Positions 1 through 60,724 of a stretch of 64,000 nucleotides of DNA are shown here, one piece after another; positions within the stretch are counted from its first letter, which is position 1; every line of letters starts with the position of its first letter. Origin of the DNA: a virus (lineage: Duplodnaviria; Caudoviricetes); IMG/VR virus record IMGVR_UViG_3300013947_000034, positions 21,019 to 85,018 of that record. One strand, 5' to 3'. Both the position numbers and the translations under genes were made by a program. The notes under the pieces are model-generated. The model did not search any database. It was not told the DNA's origin and saw nothing but the letters and a program-made list of their open reading frames with translations.

Positions 1-3000
1 GTTTACGTAAAGGATTATCAGGTTTAATACTATTTAGTTTATCTTTAGAAGCACTATCGAGTAAAAGAGCACTAGCAACTTCAAAACCTTTATTCTCAGA
101 ATTAGACTGAATAATAGCTTTAACTTCATCAGCTTTAGACGTATAAGTAGTTTTATTATCCATACCTTTTACAGGGCGGCTTTCAGACTTACTAACTACT
201 TCAAAACTAAATCTAGCATTAGCACCTTGTTTATTAGCTGCAACTCTTCTAATATTGCTACCATTTTCTTGAGCCATATTAACTCTAAGAAGATTGTTTT
301 GTTGAACAAAATCTTTAAAGCTATCATAAGTAAGATTTATACCATTCTTTCCTTTATATTCAGGAATGGTAATTTTAAACTTACCGTCAGTAGTTCTACT
401 AGTAATACCTTGAAGAGGAATGTTATGATTATTATCAGACTTTAGAACAGCAAAGTTAATATTGAAATTAAGACCTTCTATTCCTTTAATAAGTCTATCA
501 GCTACAGCAGACAAATCGCCATTATAAGAAATATAAGTAGGTTTACCATCAACTTTACTAATAATTTGACCTACACCATCACCATTTTTATCTCTATAGA
601 AAAGAAGTTGATTATTCTTATTACCAAAGTTAACTCCAAGAATATTTGCAGTTCTAAATACAGATAGTCCTTTACTGAGGAAAATAGGATTCTTATTAAT
701 ATTAAGAAGATTATCAATAAAATCAATAAAGTTATCTCTATTCTCAGTAAAATTCCCATCGTTAATAGAAGCAAGTCTATCTTTAATTTGAGTAACTATA
801 GCACTTTGAAGTTGCTTAAAGTCTTTACCTGTCTCAACGTGTTGTTGTTTGCCATCTTTTGTATAGTATGTAGCACCTGCCCAACTTACAGGATAAGCAT
901 TGACAATATCTACAGTACCATTGCTACGAGGAACAGTAACATAAGTTCGACCAGCACTAACAAGAAATTTATTGCTTCCAATACCATTAATAAATTCTCC
1001 ATTAATAGACTTAGCAGCAATTTCAAACTTAGTATCTTTAGCAATAGCTAATTGAATAGGTTGAGACGTTTCAGCATCACTTTTGAAAGTACCATCATTA
1101 CTGCGAATAAGTTCACCTTCAAATACATCACTAGCTATAATATCAATATTTGGATTATTATCAAGTTTAGCAGTTTCATTATAACTTTCGCGAAGATTAT
1201 CAAACCATCTATCAATAGAATTAGCAACTACTGCACCAGTAAATTTATTAATATTACCTTCAGTAAGAACTTTATAATTATATCTCCAAAGTTTGGCAAG
1301 TCCATTAAGAGCAACTTCATATTCAGGACCAGTTTTATCAGAGTTAATCATATTATTAGCAACCATGTCTTGAACAATAGGATTACTCTTAAATTCGCTA
1401 ACTAGTTGTTCAGCATTAAACTTATCAAAAGCAGCTTTATGAATAATTTCATTAAGTTTAGCATGCTCAGGAGTTTTACTTCTAGCTATATCTTTAAGAA
1501 CTTGTTTAAGTGCTCCATCCTTAGAACCATCAGTTTTGTCTACATGATAAATAAGACCGTCATTCTTTTGGACATATTCGCCTCGTTCACCTTCAGAAGG
1601 AAGTGATATACTACCAATAAGTTTACCGTTAGATTTAATACCTAAACGATTAGTACCTTTAGCTGTAGTAACTCTTTCGATAGTAAGTTTATCTCCGTTT
1701 TTAAGTTTAACTTGTTCAGCATAATTCTCCTTTAAGTTTTCATCAGTATCAAAATCAGAAAGATTCATATTAACTCTATGAGTAGTTCCATTAGGAAGAG
1801 CAGCATCTCTTTCAGCTTGAGATTTATGGAAGTTATTCAAGAAAACAACAGGATTACTAACATCGTTTGCATCAGTAATATTAAACTTAGCTTGACCTTC
1901 AGGGGTATTAAGATAAGCAGACAAACTATTAAACATAAAGTCAGCCATAGAATAATCATCATAAGCAGACTTAATATAGTCCATAAGGTTCATAAGATTA
2001 CCATAATACTTACCATTAATTTGAGGAAGTTCAACATCTTTAGCATAAACATCAAGTAAATCACTAACAGCTTGTTTGTAAGAATCATCAAATACTACAG
2101 CCTTACCATCTTTTGTTTTAGCATTACGTTCTTCTTGGTCAAAACTACTGAAATAAACAGAAGCAACAGTACTTTCTTTATTCAATATTTTACTCATCTT
2201 TCTACGAACAAGTTTAAAAGCACTATCTATTACTTGTTTACTTTCAGTTTCACTATAACCTTTAGCAACATAATCATCAAGCATAGCTTTAGCTTCAGTG
2301 TCCAAATTTAAATCAGGAGTAGTTTTAATTTTAGCAATAACTCCTTGAAGTATTTTCTTATCATCAGAATTACTATAGAAATCAGGAACTTTAGCTTCTT
2401 CTTTAGGAGTAGTATCTTCTTCTAAATTGGGAGCAACTGGAACAGTAGGAGCAACTGGAACAGTAGGAGCAACTGTAGTAGTTGTACCTTCTTCTATCCC
2501 CCCGGTAGAAGGTATAGTTGTGTTTCCATTAGTTCCTTCTTCTTGATTTCCTTCAACTCCAAGTTTACCTTGACTAACAACTTCAAACTTACCGTCGTTA
2601 TCAAGTCTAACTATTGGAAAACTTACAGGATTAACGTTTTGCTCAGTAGCAATATCAGCATTTGCGAATAAATCATCATTAGCATTAAGTTTAGGACTTA
2701 GAGGATGAACTTCATATTCATTATCGACATCGGTTGGAACAAGTTGATAATCATCATCAGTAGTCTCTTTACCAGTAGTCGTTGTAAACTTATAATTTGT
2801 AAAATCTAATTTTCCGATTTTACTCGGTTTTATCGCAGACTGCTGTGTACCAACATTCGATAATTGCGTATTTCCTTGCGCTGTGACGCTTTCAACTAAC
2901 GACCCTGATAAATTATTCGTCTGACCAGTTTGAGGGGTTGAGAGCGAAGGATTTAGCGGTTCTACCGTTGGCGATGGTTCAGGAGAAGCAGGAGTTTCAG

Positions 3001-6000
3001 TATTAAGTTGTTCAGCTTCTTCTTCTTGAGCTTGAGCAGCAGCAGGTTTAGTCTCTTCAAATAAATCATCTTTAGCAAGCATTTCTTGAATTTGTTCACC
3101 AAAACGATAATTGAGTTTACCGCTAAGATGAAGACAATCTAGAGCTTCTTTTAAATCTGCTTTATCTTTATCGTTAAGAATTGATACAAAGTTATCATAA
3201 TTTTCAAAGTCTTGATTATAATAAGCACCGATTGCGTTAGTGATAGCATTACGATTATCTTTATTACGTTTAGCTATATCCTTAATAGTATCATAAGTTT
3301 GATTTATAACCTTAACTCTAGCATCATCAAGCGTTTGATTTAAGAAACTAAGTTCACTAGCTATATCTTCTCTATTCTTAACTTGTTTACTTTTAAGGTA
3401 ATCTCTATTAACTTCAGCAATAGCTTTATCTACAAGTAAATCAGTAAGATTTTTACCAACAACTCCAGGAATACCAAATTCATCTGCATCAGTAAGAATT
3501 TGATTAGCTTTTCTACGATTTTCTTCAAATGCTTTATTTTGTTCAGCAATAGTTAGTTCATCAGAATATTTACTAAACTCACCAACTATATTATGTTTAG
3601 TTGCATAATCATCAAGTCTTTTGAAATACTCGGCACGTTTAGCAATATCTTCATTTCCTTCAGCATCGTTTAAATTTAAAGACATAATATCTTTAAGTTC
3701 TTTGCTAGCACCTTCGTTAGGTTTAAATTTAAGAACACCATTTTCGTCATGGAAAGCAGTAATTCCAGTACGAATAGCTTCACGAAGGTAGTCAGGAGTA
3801 AGTTGAGCTTGAACAGCAGCTATATTTTTATTAATATTATCAAGAGCTACAGCACTACTAATATCAGTCTTAGCTTTTTCTTCAATTTCTCTACGTTGAG
3901 CATAAAGTTCAGCAAGATTATTAGCAAGAATTGTTTGAGCTGCAACTCTTTGTAAATCATCAATAGAAGTATCACCTAGTTTATCAGCAATTTCTTTAAC
4001 TTGAAGAGCAGCATTAATATTAGCTTGAGTTAAACCAAGTTTGTCTTCTTGACGAGCAATATCTTGACCATACTTTACATTGTTTGTAGCAATCATTTGA
4101 AGATACTCAATTGGAATAACTTGGTCATCCTTACGATGAGCAGCATAGTTATCAGCAATATTCATAACTCTAGTAAGTTCATTATCGTATTGTTGAGTAA
4201 CTTCATCCATTTTATTAAGTATCTCTTGTTGAGTTTGAGTAGCATCTTCTTTAGTAGTAATACCTTTATTTACTAAAGCATCACGTACTTCATTAGATTT
4301 CATAAACTCACGAAGATAACCAGCGTTACCGTGATGAGCTGCATTAAGAGTTAAATCAGTAATAAGTTCATCTTGTGCTCTAGATGCAGCAACTTGTTGA
4401 GCTACAGTATTTCCTTTAATATCAGCGTTTTCACTAGGAGCAGCAAAAGGATTAACTCCTTCTTTTATCTTAGCAGCTCTATCAAAGAATATATTAAAGT
4501 TATTCAACCAAGACTGCATATTATCTCTACGAGCTTTAACTTCACCAGTTTCACTAAGACCAAAAGAACTAGGAGTACTTTCTCCAGTTTGTTCGTCAGT
4601 TTTAGTTTTAGATTTTTCATCTATAGTAGCTTGAACTCTACCAAAAGCAGAACCTAAATGATGAAATACTACACCACCCATTACTCCCCAAAAAGCAGAA
4701 TCAGCAAGTCCTCCGCTACGAAGATACTTTTTCATTCTATCATCCCAAGGAGATTTATCTGCATCTGCTTCATCAAGAAGAACATGACCAAGATTAGTAC
4801 CTTCCATTTGAGCAATATAGTTTACACCTTCTTCAAGACCTTCACTAAGTTCTCCAGCTACAATAAGCTTTTCGTTTTTAAGTCTATCCCAAACTTTATT
4901 ACGAGCTTTAGTCCAAGTAGAAACTTTATCAGCAGCAGCTTTAATTTCTTCTTCAGTTTTGCCTATAGCAAGTCTATTGTTACGAAGAGTTTCATTAAGA
5001 CTAGCACTACCGCTTCTATTTTTAAGACCTTTCCAAAAACCTCTAAGTCCATACATTTGAATAATATCAAACGTAAGATTACCAAAGTTATATTTAAAGT
5101 CTTCATCAGCAGAAGCTTTAGAAATCTTTCTAGCAACAGCATCTTTATCAGAAGTATCAATATCTTGAAGTAGTTCTTGATTCTTATTTACAAATGCTTG
5201 ATAATCTTGATTATTCATACTATTAAGCTTATCAGTAGCAGTTTTATAAACATCTTGATAAACTCCTTGCGCTTCTTGATAATTTTCCATCATACGTTGA
5301 AGTACAGCATTACCTCCAACATTAGCAAAAGTATTAAGCTTACCTCCTTCTCTAGTGCTATTAATAATTCTAGCAGCAGCAGATTGAAAACCAGTAAGAT
5401 GAGTACCTTCTACCCCACGCTCAATATTATCAAGAGTTTTATTAATACCAAATAAACTTTTAAGACCGCTACGACTACGAGCACCGAGTTTAAGAGCTTT
5501 ACCTATAGTACCAACTCCTTTCATAATTCCACTAGCAGGAAGAAGTAAAGTTAAACTAGACATTACACTAGGGAAATTACTAGCCCACCAACCGAAATTT
5601 GTAAGACCTCCACTATAAATATCATTACGTGTAGGGTCACTATAAATTGGAGCTACTTCTTGGTCGAAATAATCTTGCCATTCTTTAATTGTATTACTAA
5701 TAGGATTTTGGTAATCACCATCACTAGTAAAGAAACCATTAGCGACAGCATCAAACAAATCAGGAACAGCTTTAAGTGTACCAAGAATAGCTTGACTAAC
5801 AAGAGCTTGACTTAAAGCATTACCAGCTTTAGTCCAATTAGACTGATTTTCAGCACGCTCTTTGTCAAGATTAGTAATTGGATTAGGAGTAACACCATAG
5901 TGTTGATAACTATGAGTATCGCCCATAACCCAAGTACTACCTACGTTCTTAGCAAATTCATTAGCTGCACCTGAAGTATTATCTTGATTTACATCTAAAG

Positions 6001-20278: not shown

Positions 20279-20315
20279 TGTATTATTTATTTTACTAGTT
20301 TAATTTTGACTGGCA

Positions 20316-20323
20316 CAAATATA
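20316..20323 (-). promoter_or_regulatory. Bacteroidetes-type -7 promoter element
   Basis: TATATTTG upstream of 20278 start. Confidence 0.55.
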
Positions 20324-20396
20324 TTAATAATATATTATTATATAACTACGTTATATATATAATAATATATTTTAATATAATTGTGTCAGCGTTATA

Positions 20397-20699
20397 CTAC
20401 TCGGTTACTACTGTAACTTTGTCAGGGTCAGAATTGACAGCCTTAATAAATTCACTTACACCACTTGAAATGCTATTCATTTCATCACTATCAGTAGTCT
20501 GATAATTGATATTAAGATTATTAGTTCCGTAATAATTGAAACTAGCAACTTGATTGTTACCATCACTAGTAACACTTCCACTATCAATGTTTTCAATGTT
20601 ACCATTACGAACACGAACATCACCACTAATTGTGTGGTCACCAACAGTAGCTTCTACATGAGAAGTTACACTTACAATTTTAGTTACTTTTAAATCCAT
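20397..20699 (-). CDS. 100-aa tail-fibre-associated protein
   Basis: Beta-rich ORF with good codon usage, directly after the 427-aa gene. Confidence 0.6.
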   Translation of the reverse strand: MDLKVTKIVSVTSHVEATVGDHTISGDVRVRNGNIENIDSGSVTSDGNNQVASFNYYGTNNLNINYQTTDSDEMNSISSGVSEFIKAVNSDPDKVTVVTE

Positions 20700-20735
20700 A
20701 ATTAATTTATAATTAAATAATTAGTATATAATTTA

Positions 20736-37374: not shown

Positions 37375-38853
37375 TTACAATACACACTTCAACTGGAAGA
37401 ACTTAGTAGCCTTGTCTACTTGCAAACCGAATGAATTCTTAACCTCATAACGAGAGCAGTCAATATCAGTAGCAAGAGAATTAGTAGGAACAGCACCCCA
37501 AGAAGCAGGAATAGGAGTAAGACCTTTAATCACACCATTAATATAAACTTGACCCTTCTTACGAACCTTACGAATGTTGTTATGACCATTATAAGAAGAA
37601 GCGTCGAGCATAAATGCTTGATGAGAAGTCATAGGATAACCAGTACGAGGATGTACATCACCATTAGCCTTAGCGTTCTCAGCAAAAGTACCACGGTCGA
37701 GGAATGAAAGATGTTTCAAAGTAATCATATGACCATCAACAGTCTTATACTGACGGAAGTAGTTACCATAAGAAAGACCGCTAGCAGAAGTTTGAATCAT
37801 CTTATCACCAAGAGGAGTAACAAAACCCTCACTCTTAGCCTCATTCTTAATAGCACGGTCAAAGTCCTCTACGAAACCTTTACCACAAGCAAGAACAACA
37901 TCCATATTACCAGTGTCTGTATCCTTATCAAGAACATCACCAACAGTACGAACAAGCTTATTGATTGTAAGCTCTTCACCATAAGTGTCGTAATTAGATT
38001 CACGACAAATCTGTTGCATACCTGCTGTATGAGGAATTGGCTGACCATTATCTTCATCAACAAGAGTAATCTCACCATTGATGGTCTTATTATACTCAGC
38101 AAACCACAAACGCTCCTCATTCATTACACGTTGCTGTAACTCAAACTGGCGCATCTCCTCATTAATCCAAAGATTAGTAGTACCGCCACCAGTAGTCTTA
38201 AACTCATAAGTTACAATAGTGTTTGCAATGTTACCTGCAATCTCCTTACTAAAACGATGGAACTCAAGTTGAGAAGTCATCTTACCAGGTCCCATAGTAT
38301 TAGTACGATTACCCTTAGAATAACTCTCTGGAATAGTAGGAGCAGTCAAAGACCAACTTTTACCTACAGTCAAGTTCTTAGCTACATCGACAAAAGCTTG
38401 TGGGTTAGGATTTGTAATACGAAGACGATACAAGTAACCACCATGAGCACCAGCACCAAGGTCTTTCATAATACGAACTTGAGTTACACCATCAGGAGCA
38501 ATCAAACCATACTGCTCAATAAACCAATGAGTACGGAACTCAACTTCAAAAGTAGCACCACCCTTACCAGGAGTTGTATTAGCGTTGTTAAACCAAAGTA
38601 CAGTATCGTTGAACTTCATACGACCCATAGTCTTCCAAGTCCAATCAGTAGTATCAATATCAACTGTACCAGCAGTACCTTGACCTTCAGTCAAGAAATT
38701 AAGTGGGAATCTATCATCATCCATACCAAAAGTATAGGTGAGCATAGAATTAATCTCACTAGGTTTAGATAACATAAGATGAGCAATGGTTTCTTCATTA
38801 GAATAACCACGGTCTTCATAGTTACCACGTTGTACTTCACGAATTGCGTACAT
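37375..38853 (-). CDS. Major capsid protein
   Basis: 492 aa, strongest codon bias in window, YRQYKTVDGHMITLKH segment, position after scaffold and portal. Confidence 0.85.
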   Translation of the reverse strand: MYAIREVQRGNYEDRGYSNEETIAHLMLSKPSEINSMLTYTFGMDDDRFPLNFLTEGQGTAGTVDIDTTDWTWKTMGRMKFNDTVLWFNNANTTPGKGGATFEVEFRTHWFIEQYGLIAPDGVTQVRIMKDLGAGAHGGYLYRLRITNPNPQAFVDVAKNLTVGKSWSLTAPTIPESYSKGNRTNTMGPGKMTSQLEFHRFSKEIAGNIANTIVTYEFKTTGGGTTNLWINEEMRQFELQQRVMNEERLWFAEYNKTINGEITLVDEDNGQPIPHTAGMQQICRESNYDTYGEELTINKLVRTVGDVLDKDTDTGNMDVVLACGKGFVEDFDRAIKNEAKSEGFVTPLGDKMIQTSASGLSYGNYFRQYKTVDGHMITLKHLSFLDRGTFAENAKANGDVHPRTGYPMTSHQAFMLDASSYNGHNNIRKVRKKGQVYINGVIKGLTPIPASWGAVPTNSLATDIDCSRYEVKNSFGLQVDKATKFFQLKCVL

Positions 38854-43175: not shown

Positions 43176-45479
43176 TCAAAACCATTCTCTCTCCCATATA
43201 GAGTCTTTATAATTTGTTTCAGTTGCTTTCTTTCTATGAACAAGTTCTTTAGCTGCTTGAACATCTTGAACTCTCCATTGAAGAGCACGTATAATCATTT
43301 CAGATACACGGTCAAAGTTTCCTTTAACGTTCCATTTAAGAAGTTCAAGTATAGCTTGATGGTCATAAATAGTTTGAAACAAATAAATGTCTTCACCTTT
43401 ATAATTTTGACCGACTTTGCTATAAAGCATTTCTTTTAAAAGACGAAGACCTTCAAGAACTTTAGTACCGCCTTGACCGTTGCCACCTCCCATGTTTACA
43501 CCATAAGAAGCAGACAGTTTTGCTTTAATAGAACTATCCCAAAGTTCAACTGGGTCTTTCATCAAATATTTCAACGCTTTCCATTTAGTAAAGTTACTAA
43601 CAGTTTCACCTCGGTTTACCTCAACTCCTGTAGTACCAATACAATTATAATAACGAGCCATATAATAACATATACGGTCGGCATCTTCAAGTTTCTCAGG
43701 ACGACCATAATAAGCACAAACGCATTTAGTCTTAAAATTATTATATTGCGTAGGATTTTCCCAAACTCTAATACTATTATGAGAATGTTTATTTGTTATA
43801 CCTTCGTTTTCTTTATCAACACCAACAGGGTCATAACTAATACTATATTGACCAGGAGGAATACCAACAACTTGATGACCTTCTTTATCAGTATAAGCTA
43901 CATGAATAGGTTCAAACCATTTACGAACACAACCATGATGATGTTCATGAGCTTTACGTGGAACTCCTTCTATCCAATCATAAAAATCAACATTAAATTT
44001 ACCACCTTCTGCTTTAATACGAGCATTAGTCTTAAAAATAATCTTATGATTAATATCTTCAAAGAACATACCATCATCACTTATATCAGTATAAGCAGGG
44101 TCATTTTTAAGTATCTCTTCCCAGTTCATTAAAGCTTCAGAACTAAATAAGTTCTCACTAGTAGAACTAAATGATTCACTAGGCATATTAGCATATTGCC
44201 CGAGATAATTAATATAATCACTAAAAGATTTACTACTCTCTTTCTTAGCAACACGTTCACGATAAGCAATTCTAAGACCATTAATTATGTCAGAATTACC
44301 ATCTTTATCCATAGCAAAGTCATTACCTATTTGTCCCTGAAGACCCCAACAATAAGGTTTGAAATAACCACATATTTCATTACGAGAATCTTTATCCCAA
44401 ACATTCTCAAAAGGCATAAAATGAAATTTCTTTGGATTATAGAAGTTCATCTCGAATACTTGCATATTACCACTAGTAGCAGTACCCCAAGCAAAAAGAT
44501 TACCGGTAACATAACTACCAGTACGCATTGCAGGTTCGGTAACATTCATGTATTCATCAAAGTTTTCCATAGTAGAAACCTCCTCAGTCTTAACACTAAC
44601 AGCATCCTTACCAATAGCACAATCGGGATTGTTATTAGCAGAAGCACTAAATAAAGCACTATTCCAAGACTTAGGACTAACATCACCGTTAGGTAGTTTA
44701 AAACCTAAAGTAAAGTTCTCAGCAGCTCTAGAAAGAATACCACGTTTAAAGAATGTATTATTCTCATAAAAATAAAGATTACGAATAGTAAAGTCAGTAA
44801 GACCTCCACGCTTAGTAAGATATTTACTATCCGCTGCAACATGAATACAAACTTTATTAGGTTCGAGATTAATCTTATTGGCACTATGACTAGCCATAAT
44901 ATAAGAGAAACCACCACGGCGAGTTTTATCTATAAGAAGATGAAAACCATTAAGTTCACAAAACTCAATAATAGCAAACGTCCAAAATTGAGCATCAATA
45001 AACTTTGGAAAGTCTTGTTTCTTCTTAGCAACAGAACCTTTATCAGTATGAATAATACTCTTTTCATCAAGCTGTTCAATAACTATATAATTTAAATAGT
45101 TATACATAGCTCCACTAATATGAAGATTACGAACTTTGCCATCTCTCATAAAACAAGGAGCTTCGTAACCATTAGTTCTTCTATATTCTTCACGTTTACG
45201 AAGTTGTCTATGAGGAATAGAATCTTCTTTATAAAGAGTATATTTACCACCGTTTATATGATAAAGATTAGCCATTTCCTGAAACAGATTTGTATCTACA
45301 AATCTATCACCTTTACGTATATCAAGAAGAAAGCCACCGCTTTCTCCAATCATAAACAAATCATTAGGGTCTTTATAACCTGCATCTTTGGCACGTTGAT
45401 AACAACTCTTTGGTTCATTTATGTATTGTAAGAATGGGTAGCTTTCAATATACTTTTCAACAGAACTTATATCACTCAT
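43176..45479 (-). CDS. terL: Terminase large subunit
   Basis: KTRRGGFS Walker A-like, KTEEV Walker B, GTATSG, nuclease SYDP and FDRVS; ATGA overlap with upstream gene. Confidence 0.9.
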   Translation of the reverse strand: MSDISSVEKYIESYPFLQYINEPKSCYQRAKDAGYKDPNDLFMIGESGGFLLDIRKGDRFVDTNLFQEMANLYHINGGKYTLYKEDSIPHRQLRKREEYRRTNGYEAPCFMRDGKVRNLHISGAMYNYLNYIVIEQLDEKSIIHTDKGSVAKKKQDFPKFIDAQFWTFAIIEFCELNGFHLLIDKTRRGGFSYIMASHSANKINLEPNKVCIHVAADSKYLTKRGGLTDFTIRNLYFYENNTFFKRGILSRAAENFTLGFKLPNGDVSPKSWNSALFSASANNNPDCAIGKDAVSVKTEEVSTMENFDEYMNVTEPAMRTGSYVTGNLFAWGTATSGNMQVFEMNFYNPKKFHFMPFENVWDKDSRNEICGYFKPYCWGLQGQIGNDFAMDKDGNSDIINGLRIAYRERVAKKESSKSFSDYINYLGQYANMPSESFSSTSENLFSSEALMNWEEILKNDPAYTDISDDGMFFEDINHKIIFKTNARIKAEGGKFNVDFYDWIEGVPRKAHEHHHGCVRKWFEPIHVAYTDKEGHQVVGIPPGQYSISYDPVGVDKENEGITNKHSHNSIRVWENPTQYNNFKTKCVCAYYGRPEKLEDADRICYYMARYYNCIGTTGVEVNRGETVSNFTKWKALKYLMKDPVELWDSSIKAKLSASYGVNMGGGNGQGGTKVLEGLRLLKEMLYSKVGQNYKGEDIYLFQTIYDHQAILELLKWNVKGNFDRVSEMIIRALQWRVQDVQAAKELVHRKKATETNYKDSIWEREWF

Positions 45480-50262: not shown

Positions 50263-50399
50263 AACTTTAATATTTAAATTAATAACTAGAATATACTTAT
50301 CTTTAGTAAGTTATTTAATATTTTATTTTAATAGCTCTGGAGATAATGCTCAAGCTACTACTGAAGATAATGCTCAAGATATTGCTCCAAAACCTGCTG

Positions 50400-50407
50400 C
50401 AAAGATA
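50400..50407 (-). promoter_or_regulatory. Bacteroidetes-type -7 promoter element at head of late operon
   Basis: TATCTTTG upstream of 50262 start. Confidence 0.55.
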
Positions 50408-50490
50408 TATATAAATAATGTACGTGCTACTACTGTTAGTCTTCATTTGTTAAGATTAACAAACTGAAACGATTAGTGTTATACATATCA

Positions 50491-50510
50491 ATACCTTTTA
50501 CAGGGCGGCT
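50491..50510 (+). repeat. 20-bp motif copy 16 (perfect, 3 nt past RepL-like stop)
   Basis: ATACCTTTTACAGGGCGGCT. Confidence 0.9.
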
Positions 50511-50513
50511 AGA

Positions 50514-51030: not shown

Positions 51031-51588
51031 TTAATAATTAGTTATTATAACTTTACCATTATCATTAAGTTCTCCTTTTCGATTACCATATAACATATTA
51101 TAATCTACAGCAAATAAATCAACATCACCATTAAACAATAAATTATGATTTACAATATAAGTATTAGGTTTATTTGTTCTAACTAAAACATTTAATTCTT
51201 TTCTATAACAAATACTATGTATTATAGTTTTAGCATGTTCAATAGTACAGTTTAGTTTATAGCCTATACTTTCATAATCTACAACATAAATATTAGAATT
51301 ATATGGAAGAGTTGTTCCGATATAAAGCATAGTACGAATTTCATCAACATGTAAATTACCATTATTAATAATAGCTTCACTTAATTTTTGATTAATTCTA
51401 AAAGTACTAGGAACATTATGAGGAACATATAATTTACAAGTTTCTATAAAATCAAATAAATCATAATCTTCATTATCTTTAGGAAGAATAACATCATATA
51501 TTGTTGGAACAATATAAGCACTTTTAATTCTAGCAGCTCGTTGTGCTACAAATTGAATGCGATAAGCAGAATAATCGTCTAGTTTCAT
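51031..51588 (-). CDS. RepL-like winged-helix protein
   Basis: ESIGYKLNCTIEHAKTII HTH and TYIVNHNLLFNG (RepL-type Y-x-VNP-x3-F-x-G). Confidence 0.65.
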   Translation of the reverse strand: MKLDDYSAYRIQFVAQRAARIKSAYIVPTIYDVILPKDNEDYDLFDFIETCKLYVPHNVPSTFRINQKLSEAIINNGNLHVDEIRTMLYIGTTLPYNSNIYVVDYESIGYKLNCTIEHAKTIIHSICYRKELNVLVRTNKPNTYIVNHNLLFNGDVDLFAVDYNMLYGNRKGELNDNGKVIITNY

Positions 51589-51622
51589 AATCTTATTTAT
51601 TTTAATTGTTAAAATGATTTTG

Positions 51623-51692
51623 CAAATATATTAATAATTTGTTAATAAATGACATTATATTTACTATATTATATATTAATAATGTATATTTG
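51623..51692. promoter_or_regulatory. Divergent pair of TATATTTG promoters
   Basis: Minus 51623-51630 toward RepL-like genes; plus 51685-51692 toward ncRNA candidate. Confidence 0.6.
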
Positions 51693-52012
51693 CAGTCGCA
51701 GACCTACATAGCAGAATAATAGTTGTTCAAATAGTTACAACTACTGTAACTCGACCTGCTAATGAACTTGTATTAGATTGAGTGTTACTCATGGTTTACA
51801 AGAGTTAGCAATAAGTCTGTGAGGGCTTCTTGGTTCTCCTTTCATTTAAAGCTAAAAAGCAAGGTGGAAAGACTCTTACAAGAAGTTGAGAATTATGTAA
51901 TCAAAACAAAGTTTTTGACCAGAGTATACTCTTATACTCAAGAGATACTATATTCACTAAAGAAATAAATAATAAAGTAGCTGTTGGATAAATTAATCTA
52001 ACAGCTATTATT
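51693..52012 (+). ncRNA. Candidate structured non-coding RNA at the strand switch
   Basis: TATATTTG promoter at 51685, nested stems, no ORF longer than 5 codons, 12-bp terminator-like hairpin at 51978-52007. Confidence 0.5.
51978..52012 (+). terminator. Terminator-like hairpin closing ncRNA candidate
   Basis: TAGCTGTTGGAT/ATCTAACAGCTA followed by TTATTG. Confidence 0.6.
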
Positions 52013-52590
52013 GTATATAATAATATCAGTAATAATAATTGTAGTGTTGTTGAAGAAGATAATAATGATGAATATAATAATTAGGCGATGATAGTAAAGA
52101 TAATTATAATATAAATAATGATGGTATTGATAATTATAATATAAATAATTGTAAGGGAGGACATAAAATAGATAGTATAGATAATAATAATGATGAAATT
52201 GGTAATAATGAAACTGATAATAGAGATAATGAAGAAATTAATGATGATAAAGTTGAAAATGATGATAAAGAAATTAATAAAGATGAAGAAAATAATAAAG
52301 ATAAAGAAGTTGAAGTTACTGATGAAGTTACTTATGAAGTTAAAGCTACTGATAATAAAGTTGCTGATAAAGTTACTGATGATGATGAAAGTGATTTATA
52401 TAATTGTAAGGAAGGAAGTATGTACTACTGCCCCCGGTCTTCGATAAGCTAATTGAATGCCCCCCCCCCTACTCATCAACAACTGAAAAATCATTGTCAT
52501 GCAACAACTAAAAAAGTCTTGGCTGGAGAAAATCTTCATGCTAGTAGTAGACGAGCTGCTACTTATTGTTTTACTCCTAATTATATTCAA

Positions 52591-59230: not shown

Positions 59231-60724
59231 ATGCACAACGAAGATACTTTAGTATTTGGTAATGGTAAGAATATTAGTACTCAAACAGATAAAGATAGAG
59301 TTAATACTTTTGGTTTTACAGAAGACCAAAAGAAAGCCTATCTCGGTCTTATTGAGTTTATTAATGAACCATTTAATCCTAGTGATTATAGGCGTGCTCT
59401 AGTTGGTCCTGGAGGTGTGGGCAAAACGTTCCTTCTAAAAAGTATTATACAGAATTGTAATGTTCCTTTTTCTAAGATTGGTATAAGTGCTCCAAGTCAT
59501 AAAGCTTGTAGAGTTCTTAGAACTAATCTTATTGGTACTCATACAAATGTAAATACTATTCAATCTGATTTTGGTTTTAGACCTAATTTTGATATTGAAA
59601 AGTTTGATGAACGTAATGTTCAGTTTGCTAAGAGTGGTAGAATTAAGGTTGAAGATTACAGTATTTATATTATTGATGAATCTTCTATGTTGAACAAAAG
59701 TCTTGTTAATTATATTAATAAAACTCTTTCTGCTCAACATTGTAAAGTTATATATGTTGGAGATGACCATCAAATACCTCCTGTAAATGAATACGAATCT
59801 ACTGCTTTCAAAGGTATTAAAACTTATAGATTAACTCAGATTGTAAGACAAGATAATGATAATCCTATAAGAAAACTTTGTGATATGCTTAGATATGATA
59901 TTGAACATTATACTTTTACGTTCCTTGAATATCTATGTAAACATCATGAAGAATATGATGCTACTATGACTAAAGGATTTAAAGTTTGTGGAGCAGCTGA
60001 ATTTCAGAGACAAGTTAATCTTCAATTTAGTGATGAAGCAATTACTCATAATACAGATTATGTCAAAGTTATAGCTTATACTAATAGATGTGTTTCAGAT
60101 TGGAATAAATATATTAGAGAAACTATAATTAAAGATGCTGATAAATCTGTTATTACAACTAATGATTTAATTACTTCTTATATTACTATTGTTGATGATT
60201 TCAATGATGCTATTATAAGAAATAGTGAAGATTATATAGTTAAAAGTATTGCTAATTATACTCATCCTAAGTATGAAATTAAAGGCTTTATGGTTAAATT
60301 TCAAGCAGTTTATGGTGGAGCTGTAACTTCTCCTTTGTTTGTTATTGACCATAGAGATAAATATTCTGTTCAAATGTATTGTAAAATAAGTAAAGACCTT
60401 ATTGAACAAGCACAAAATGCTGACCGTTACAAACGTGCTGCAAAATGGAAAGAATACTTTAAGTTCAAAGAAAGTTGCTTGCTTTTGATTAATCTTGTAC
60501 GTAGTGATGAAACAGTTCTTCATTATCGTAATCTAGATTATGGTTTTAGCGTTACTGCACACAAGGCTCAAGGCAGTACTTATAATGTTAGTATGGTCGA
60601 TATTAATGATATAGTTTATGATAAGAATGGACATCCTTATCAAAACGCTAAAGATATTAATAAACGACTTTATGTTGCAATTTCTAGAGCAAAAGAAAAA
60701 GTAATCATGAAATATGGATATTGA
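59231..60724 (+). CDS. SF1B (Dda/RecD-like) helicase
   Basis: GPGGVGKT, IIDESSM, VGDDHQIPPV, LTQIVRQ, TAHKAQGSTY, YVAISRAK. Confidence 0.9.
   Translation: MHNEDTLVFGNGKNISTQTDKDRVNTFGFTEDQKKAYLGLIEFINEPFNPSDYRRALVGPGGVGKTFLLKSIIQNCNVPFSKIGISAPSHKACRVLRTNLIGTHTNVNTIQSDFGFRPNFDIEKFDERNVQFAKSGRIKVEDYSIYIIDESSMLNKSLVNYINKTLSAQHCKVIYVGDDHQIPPVNEYESTAFKGIKTYRLTQIVRQDNDNPIRKLCDMLRYDIEHYTFTFLEYLCKHHEEYDATMTKGFKVCGAAEFQRQVNLQFSDEAITHNTDYVKVIAYTNRCVSDWNKYIRETIIKDADKSVITTNDLITSYITIVDDFNDAIIRNSEDYIVKSIANYTHPKYEIKGFMVKFQAVYGGAVTSPLFVIDHRDKYSVQMYCKISKDLIEQAQNADRYKRAAKWKEYFKFKESCLLLINLVRSDETVLHYRNLDYGFSVTAHKAQGSTYNVSMVDINDIVYDKNGHPYQNAKDINKRLYVAISRAKEKVIMKYGY

Follow-up and report, generated by a model that had tools for sequence, protein, structure and literature searches.

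ROOL, GOLLD and the phage small RNAs are phage-encoded, ORF-free RNAs that have their own promoter and an unknown or accessory role. In phage P1, by comparison, oriL lies inside repL. For the crAss-like phage phi14:2, the preprint that describes its transcription reports that two long intergenic regions near the left end of the genome are transcribed rightward at levels above most genes and from the earliest time point on (bioRxiv 10.1101/2020.03.07.982082), and it places the abundant long non-coding RNAs of this phage between g004 and g005 and between g005 and g006 (Drobysheva et al., bioRxiv 10.1101/2020.03.07.982082). Small ORFs were once annotated in these regions and have since been removed by RefSeq. 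phi14:2 is a marine relative of the phage studied here and its RNAs are the only experimental hint of this kind; for gut crAss-like phages, our literature search turned up no description of non-coding RNAs.

We analyzed a window of 64,000 nucleotides, which comprises bases 21019-85018 of an 85-kb IMG/VR virus contig. On the basis of gene content, i.e., a major head protein, a large terminase and a Dda-like helicase (Table 1) together with a weak signal for a family-B polymerase at the window's right end, the source was assigned to the crAss-like phages (Crassvirales, Intestiviridae), near cr8_1. The major head protein has 93% identity to its counterpart in the uncultured phage cr8_1 (Crassvirales, Intestiviridae, Obtuvirinae). 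Genes run leftward up to 51588 and rightward from ~52500, and the cumulative GC skew reaches its minimum at ~52000. Given this switch in gene orientation and the skew minimum, the ORF-free unit is positioned exactly between the diverging structural and replication arms, in agreement with the initial annotation, which had placed a structured, ORF-free transcription unit at the late/early switch. Downstream of the unit lies a purine-rich tract of 360 nt with 15-nt periodic repeats, and every relative has such a tract (65-78% purine). The first conserved rightward gene starts ~500 nt past the terminal hairpin of the unit and has its own conserved upstream element (52392-52500), which is common to relatives without any plus-strand host-type promoter and for which no consensus RNA fold was found. 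This location also suits a DNA-level alternative, which we consider unlikely, namely that the stretch belongs to a replication origin or an operator region served by the RepL-like/winged-helix proteins encoded beside it, and that its promoter would provide transcriptional activation or a primer, as in P1 oriL or ColE1. The skew minimum and the purine-rich tract, which would favour R-loops, are consistent with such an element; however, the skew switch coincides with the switch in gene orientation and is therefore not independent evidence.

Table 1. Features of the switch region and marker genes of the window (window positions; RNA elements as predicted).
Feature	Position	Strand	Description
Two accessory genes, 171 aa and 185 aa	50514-51588	-	Divergent from the unit
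Leftward promoter, -7 box TATATTTG	51623-51630	-	Sense-oriented, 35 nt from the start codon
Rightward host-type promoter	51668-51694	+	AT-rich upstream part, -7 box, then CA
5′ domain	51697-51821	+	Closing helix encloses a 7-bp hairpin and a three-tier hairpin
Middle hairpin	51824-51887	+	GCTTCTTG 51825 / CAAGAAGT 51879, inner CTTTC 51839 / GAAAG 51867
Two short hairpins	51888-51947	+	Include the palindrome AGAGTATACTCT at 51921
A/U-rich stretch	51948-51975	+	Unpaired in the minimum-free-energy and centroid structures of the 323-nt fold
Terminator-like hairpin	51976-52009	+	14 bp (4 G-C) by terminator scan; 12-bp core 51978-52007
Major head protein	37375-38853	-	Gene content of the window
Large terminase	43176-45479	-	Gene content of the window
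Dda-like helicase	59231-60724	+	Gene content of the window

Primary-sigma promoters of Bacteroidota have TAnnTTTG as their -7 element. The box TATATTTG at 51685-51692 matches this element, and when TTTG about 19-21 nt upstream of the -7 box was taken as the criterion for a -33 element, a 3/4 match was found in TTTA at 51660-51663, with a spacer of 21 nt. The 18-mer TAATAATGTATATTTGCA recurs identically just 5′ of ATG genes in unrelated Bacteroidota phage contigs, and a scan of the contig collection with the 18-mer TAATAAKGTATATTTGCA likewise led to unrelated phage contigs, in several of which the motif lies 9-30 nt before an ATG-started gene; the plus-strand promoter that had been proposed at 51685 was thereby borne out as a Bacteroidota-type promoter. 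A perfect -33 TTTG is also missing from several of the 18-mer-matched promoters found elsewhere. The bare 8-mer box showed no enrichment in the window (11 copies versus 10.2 expected). When only intergenic TAnnTTTG boxes of the window were considered, 13 of the 15 were sense-oriented toward the downstream gene; all but one of these 13 have the start codon 22-138 nt away, and in most the sequence runs on as TTTGCA. The copy at 51685 is the best fit to the TTTGCA-type box consensus of the window and is the only sense intergenic box there that has no gene within 140 nt, the next gene start being 899 nt away. We take it to be a generic strong promoter, which very probably fires. Host RNA polymerase carrying the primary Bacteroidota sigma factor would start at ~51696-51699, just past the consensus -7 box, and the closing helix CGCAGAC has its first base at this predicted start. 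In addition, no minus-strand TAnnTTTG box was found to the right of the unit, which favours transcription of the plus strand. The second promoter of the region (Table 1) probably drives the 185-aa and 171-aa genes, and its region has 77% identity over 59 nt to the promoter region at 20316. The leftward and rightward promoters stand back to back with 54 nt between their boxes, and therefore their upstream regions overlap. That the rightward promoter is a perfect consensus and not decayed argues against an alternative which we regard as improbable, namely that the locus is inert and consists of a stranded promoter followed by inverted repeats that arose by chance or are relics, in a recombination hot spot for accessory cassettes.

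All of the stems, the palindrome, the promoter box and the hairpin described in the initial annotation were confirmed on the sequence at their positions, and the minimum-free-energy fold reproduced the claimed stems. In the 5′ domain, the closing helix CGCAGAC (51697)/GTCTGTG (51815), which starts at the predicted transcription start, encloses a hairpin of 7 bp at 51733-51751 (AGTTACA 51733/TGTAACT 51745) and a three-tier hairpin at 51757-51810 (TGCTAA 51757/TTAGCA 51805, CTTGTA 51767/TACAAG 51797 and TGAGT 51779/ACTCA 51787). The domain has a folding energy of -32.6 kcal/mol, and its z-scores are -2.69 (plus strand) and -3.65 (minus strand). When scored over 51822-51890, the middle hairpin is indistinguishable from shuffles (-17.3 kcal/mol, z -1.0), and the two short hairpins are weak (-11.6 kcal/mol, z -1.9). 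The terminal hairpin reaches -18.7 kcal/mol on the plus strand versus -12.6 kcal/mol on the minus strand, with a z-score of -7.0; the hairpin of 12 bp that had been described at 51978-52007 is present as the core of this element, which the terminator scan extended to 14 bp. A conformational switch had also been suggested, based on pairing between TAGCAG at 51709 and CTGCTA at 51756. The two motifs are indeed complementary, but a pairing of 6 nt is expected by chance in 320 nt, and the proposed switch gained no support.

The tail after the terminal hairpin, ATTGTATATA, has five T in eight positions and no uninterrupted U run, and read-through is possible because this U tract is weak. The order of promoter, structure, terminator hairpin and same-strand genes is a classic attenuator layout, and together with the weak U tract it is what would be expected if the promoter were an entry point of host polymerase into the rightward arm and the 320-nt stretch a cis-acting attenuator or antitermination leader with no function once released. 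We consider such a leader quite unlikely, given the distance of about 500 nt between the hairpin and the first conserved gene, and given that this gene has an upstream element of its own, shared with relatives that lack a plus-strand host-type promoter.

When the whole stretch of 323 nt was compared with dinucleotide shuffles, z-scores of -5.16 (plus strand) and -3.85 (minus strand) were obtained. The proposed fold thus stands out from shuffled sequence but is only moderately unusual against the genome background: 45 random 323-nt sense-strand segments of the genome had a mean z of -1.33 (sd 1.69, minimum -5.46), one of the 45 reached -5.16 or lower, and when folding energy was regressed on GC content across 1,600 strand-windows, the residual of the unit was about -2.1 sd. 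Since one in 45 segments is as extreme and the residual is -2.1 sd, the fold falls among approximately the most extreme 2-5% of the genome without being unique. Shuffle z-scores overstate the significance of folds in this genome, and a comparison with the genome background is needed. The terminal hairpin and the 5′ domain contribute most of the signal. The position of the fold within the tail of the background and the lack of significance of the middle hairpin are what an inert locus would give; on the other hand, the first helix begins at the predicted start and a hairpin of -18.7 kcal/mol closes the unit. With respect to strand, mirroring the fold of either strand onto the other cost 12-14 G-U pairs both ways, and since the fold of each strand uses its own G-U pairs, these are uninformative on strand. 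Folding therefore fails to separate the strands, except for the terminal hairpin, where the plus strand has an advantage of 6 kcal/mol. Near-equal folding of both strands fits plain DNA inverted repeats as well as it fits RNA, and the fact that the minus strand folds nearly as well, with the 5′ domain even better on that strand, favours the origin or operator alternative.

The coding potential of the unit was examined next to its structure. The statement in the initial annotation that the stretch has no ORF over 5 codons holds for ATG starts, but not for a GTG-started ORF of 49 codons (51819-51968) and a stop-to-stop frame of 63 codons that are present in the unit. No gene was called in the unit in 9 independent assemblies of the same species, the 63-codon frame had no match among 5.8 billion protein clusters, and six-frame tblastn of the unit against about 1 Mb of related loci returned nothing. 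A small-protein reading was rejected, there being no homologue, no gene call and no six-frame remnant, and the unit is ORF-free in practice. The same tblastn search gave no trace of a decayed gene, which argues against an inert relic.

No match was obtained for the whole window with the Rfam 15 families, among them riboswitches, 6S, tmRNA, RNase P, ribozymes, ROOL/GOLLD and CRISPR repeats, at the gathering threshold, and at E values up to 10 the best hits in 51400-52500 had 16-18 bits (E 5-7) versus thresholds of 38-79. A resemblance to CRISPR-DR61 at 51716-51750 (18 bits, E 6.8) was dismissed as noise. No riboswitch or leader family in Rfam matched the unit, which argues against the leader alternative, and ARAGORN found no tRNA or tmRNA gene in the window. 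Gapless antisense runs against the phage's own transcripts were 13-17 nt long with G-U pairs allowed, with no extended match, and were judged ordinary by a rough count of chance 11-mer matches, made without shuffle comparison. One outlier in duplex energy, at a nested internal ATG, was set aside as it involved unphysically long loops, and an 11-nt similarity between 51740-51751 and 20403-20420 was discarded as about 10 such matches are expected by chance.

The distribution of the unit was then determined by several types of search. A blastn search of the phage database with the region gave no match, and blastn and nhmmer against 22 related loci (helicase identity 46-71%) returned only AT-rich low-complexity matches. 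Exact-pattern scans of viral and metagenome contigs with RNA-internal 20-25-mers found nothing, and a covariance model of the 5′ domain (R1), run over 34 sources, found only itself. For the 185-aa neighbour, 53 blocks of assemblies were recovered, and all of the proteins are identical or 98% identical to it. When the 171-aa neighbour was used as the anchor, many 202-aa homologues were obtained, with no window-type unit beside them; the contig of the 71%-identical relative ends 215 nt upstream. Across all these searches, the unit is restricted to one phage species, and in 9 near-identical strain sequences it differs by a single SNP (51852 C>A), which breaks one pair in the weak apical stem of the middle hairpin. 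The closest other species (L083 and L084; first early protein at 84% and 69% identity) lack the whole block, i.e., the two accessory genes, the two promoters and the ORF-free unit. Given that positions 50263-50513 of the window match the switch region of these species without the block, the block looks like an inserted accessory cassette, and because the closest other species lack it, the unit is dispensable. The absence of the block, Rep-like genes included, from these species rules it out as the core origin. The limitation of the element to one clonal species is also in line with an inert locus. L083 and L084 have a plus-strand TAAATTTG box that reads into the same purine-rich tract, and this observation favours the leader alternative.

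The two genes transcribed divergently from the unit had been called RepL-like in the initial annotation. No Pfam family, RepL (PF05732) included, was found for the 185-aa or the 171-aa protein at E values up to 0.01, and PHROGs gave nothing for either. The ESM-Atlas clusters nearest to the 185-aa protein by features and predicted structure do include RepL (scores 0.94-0.95, TM 0.5-0.63); a single-sequence structure prediction of this protein had a pLDDT of 31 and was unusable. The 171-aa family comprises over 100 homologues, most of which are 202 aa long, and its only Pfam trace is HTH_36 at E 0.027. An alignment-based model of residues 12-103 of the 171-aa protein predicts a winged helix (mean pLDDT 54, 63-88 in blocks across residues 21-100), and the best Foldseek matches of this model are MarR, GntR and ArsR regulators (E 0.02-0.2). 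The label could thus not be kept as a family assignment, and the RepL and winged-helix likenesses serve as leads only, not as evidence of membership. For the origin or operator alternative, the position of the unit beside two genes with RepL- or winged-helix-like products counts in favour, as do two or three AAAAATTGC-N8-GCAA-TTTTT palindromes beside the 202-aa homologue in relatives that have it. However, no iterons or repeated half-sites are present inside 51690-52012, and the Pfam RepL family is unmatched.

The switch region was found to be a variable slot, whose content differs among close relatives; such variation among close relatives would also be seen with an inert locus in a hot spot. 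L006 and L009 have a different unit of about 135 nt on the minus strand, with the promoter TATCTTTGCAGTCG, two hairpins and a terminator. In L012 and L015, the back-to-back promoter pair of the window recurs; its rightward promoter is followed by about 500 ORF-free nt and a canonical T6 terminator, and this type of unit is also present in six further distinct metagenome-contig sequences. In the first two sequences, 17 of 74 pairs are compensatory and none is broken. In an alignment of eight distinct sequences (A8), 22 of 65 pairs are changed on both sides and 520 of 520 cells pair, while structures slid by 1-3 columns gave 0-3 compensatory pairs; A8 was fitted to its own model, a covariance model of 227 positions and 65 pairs (R2), and is somewhat flattered by this, the margin still being large. 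Five pairs are G-U in every sequence, and these conserved G-U pairs indicate that the unit acts as a plus-strand RNA. Together, the alignments indicate a constrained plus-strand RNA structure, which is not in Rfam. Model R2 had no match in the window at E values up to 10, nor did model R1 match L012/L015-type loci.

The gene beside the L012 unit is an orthologue of the core 178-aa gene of the window (E 4e-26), and no RepL-like genes were found beside the L012/L015 unit. The sibling and the window's unit share their position between the core 178/192-aa gene and the purine-rich tract, their promoter type (TAATAAgGTATATTTGCA), and an ORF-free build in which a multi-branched 5′ domain is closed near the start and a hairpin stands at the end. 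In contrast, there is no detectable homology between them, the sibling unit is longer (about 500 nt) and ends in the canonical T6 terminator, and it has 22 compensatory pairs whereas the window's unit has none. The presence of a covarying plus-strand RNA at the same locus without a RepL-like gene argues against an origin or operator, its strong T6 terminator argues against a leader, and the constraint on this RNA in sibling phages argues against an inert locus. By the same evidence, the sibling RNA family is better supported and a stronger lead than the window's unit, and because of its covariation it is the better target for experiments.

Taken together, we favour the reading that the window's unit is a species-specific accessory non-coding RNA transcription unit, with a probability of about 0.45. 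The support that promoter, locus and lineage lend to a non-coding RNA is circumstantial and makes it plausible. According to this reading, about 320 nt without a translatable frame would be transcribed from the rightward promoter, with termination at the 14-bp hairpin for a large share of the transcripts. In the product, the first helix of a three-way junction domain would lock up the 5′ end, hairpins and an unpaired A/U-rich segment would follow, and a stable hairpin would form the 3′ end, a build that would suit a stable stand-alone RNA rather than an mRNA. The most likely mode of action of the product would be to bind a protein, host or phage, rather than to pair with mRNA, since the search against the phage's own transcripts gave no extended antisense match; for an RNA with a helical 5′ end, a multi-branched body and a hairpin that stabilizes the 3′ end, the most economical guess is that it stands alone and binds a protein. 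If the RNA is real, gut Intestiviridae would also give a strong host-type promoter at a regulatory hub to an RNA product, and the slot would be swapped between species. A broader proposal, which we put forward as speculative and somewhat unlikely, is that the strand-switch locus of Intestiviridae is a slot for interchangeable, lineage-specific structured RNAs with consensus host promoters, of which the 320-nt unit of the window, the L012-type RNA and the 135-nt L006/L009 unit would be examples. Such RNAs might be accessory effectors, e.g., protein-binding decoys against host defence or RNA machinery, and gut counterparts of the phi14:2 long non-coding RNAs.

The window's unit can be compared with known systems. 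With P1 oriL/RepL and ColE1 RNA II, it has in common a promoter that reads into a structured non-coding stretch beside RepL-like genes and upstream of a purine-rich tract; unlike P1 oriL, the unit is oriented away from the Rep-like genes, and close relatives can do without the entire block. As with ROOL, GOLLD and the phage small RNAs, the unit is phage-encoded and ORF-free and has its own promoter, but it is much smaller than ROOL and GOLLD and has no Rfam match, and compared with antisense small RNAs it is larger than typical and no antisense target was found in the phage. It would plausibly be a new single-species member of the phage-encoded non-coding RNAs, among which RNAs of unknown function are already known as a class. 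The phi14:2 RNAs are not similar to the unit in sequence; they come from longer regions (about 1.7 kb for the two), and one of these regions matches the Rfam tmRNA at 46 bits whereas the window's unit is without a tmRNA by ARAGORN and Rfam; the unit of the window has a host-type promoter. The two systems have in common the phage order and the rightward direction, and in both the ORF-free stretches are long and located close to where the rightward early/replication arm begins.

Comparison of the strand-switch loci of sibling crAss-like phages, in which the leftward structural and rightward replication arms diverge, identified an RNA family, at least about 230 nt in length, that has a consensus host promoter ahead of it and a T6 terminator after it (features are compiled in the table below). 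In the alignment of its eight distinct sequences (A8), 22 of the 65 base pairs were compensatory and every cell was paired; the alignment is fitted to the covariance model of the family (R2). A search of the A8 family against Rfam gave no match. Judged from sequence comparison, the A8 family is a structured RNA that has so far been unannotated.

Features at and around the strand-switch loci
Feature	Location	Strand
Structured RNA family (alignment A8, model R2)	sibling phages L012: 3437-3663 and L015: 2974-3200; also L100, L104, L105, L106, L108 and L110	
Purine-rich tract (A+G 67%) carrying repeats with a 15-nt period	window 52040-52452	
ORF-free unit of ~135 nt with promoter TATCTTTGCAGTCG, two hairpins and a clean terminator	phage loci L006: 1543-1721 and L009: 1307-1485	minus
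26-nt palindrome-like motif (AAAAATTGC-N8-GCAA-TTTTT), two or three copies	L027: 2090-2230 (G005); L006: 1725-1820	
Motif ATACCTTTTACAGGGCGGCTA, right behind the stop of the 171-aa gene	window 50491-50511	
Conserved element TAAATAATTGTRAGGGAGG ... ACTAGCAACCCCCG ... TTGAA ... CCCCC, directly ahead of the first rightward gene	window 52392-52500	
Stretches without annotated gene flanking the homologue of the 185-aa protein	phage L118: 2236-2847 (612 nt) and 3400-4358 (959 nt)	

The window shares the conserved element with relatives whose helicase identity is as low as 52%, and it also carries a partial copy of the element at 52131-52160. Since no consensus RNA fold was found for this element, it is probably a signal acting at the DNA level, e.g., an early promoter or a terminus. 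A 99-nt terminal repeat of one relative begins on an element of this type; in addition, the length of the poly-C run in the element differs between strains, and the contig of one strain ends within the run. The purine-rich tract occurred in every relative, with a purine content of 65-78% versus 53% across the whole arm. In the window it contains an open frame of 123 codons, with many D, N, E and K residues, that has no ATG, GTG or TTG start until close to its end, and strain indels within the tract are multiples of three; the tracts of the relatives have stops in all frames.

The leftward promoter at 20316-20323 (within 20279-20735) and the promoter at 51623-51630, which serves the divergent 171-aa (winged-helix) and 185-aa genes, were 77% identical across 59 nt; the two appear to be copies of one promoter module. 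The ORF-free unit of L006 and L009, known from just two near-identical copies, lies immediately upstream of the promoter of a winged-helix gene of 202-205 aa, and its own promoter has the same TTTGCAGTCG as the start of the promoter-driven unit of the window. The palindrome-like motifs adjoin the 202-aa homologue of the 171-aa winged-helix gene and look like operators or iterons; they were absent from the switch region of the window. L008, G001 and G002 have the motif ATACCTTTTACAGGGCGGCTA conserved at the corresponding position. In cr110_1 (L118, NC_055879), a protein distantly homologous to the 185-aa one, with 28% identity, is encoded next to the SSB gene, and the 959-nt flanking stretch is pyrimidine-rich and of low complexity on the strand of the homologue gene.

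Cellulophaga phage phi14:2 (NC_021806) has two ORF-free stretches to be considered here, of which the one at 2905-3590 finds no explanation in the tmRNA match of the other. The latter match, to the Rfam tmRNA family (RF00023), covers 4031-4502 on the plus strand with 46 bits (E 6.8e-16), one bit below the gathering score of the family, and falls inside the g005-g006 intergenic region. This region is described in a preprint by Drobysheva et al. (bioRxiv 10.1101/2020.03.07.982082) as producing large amounts of a long non-coding RNA with no known function. In view of the Rfam match, the transcript may be a tmRNA of the phage.
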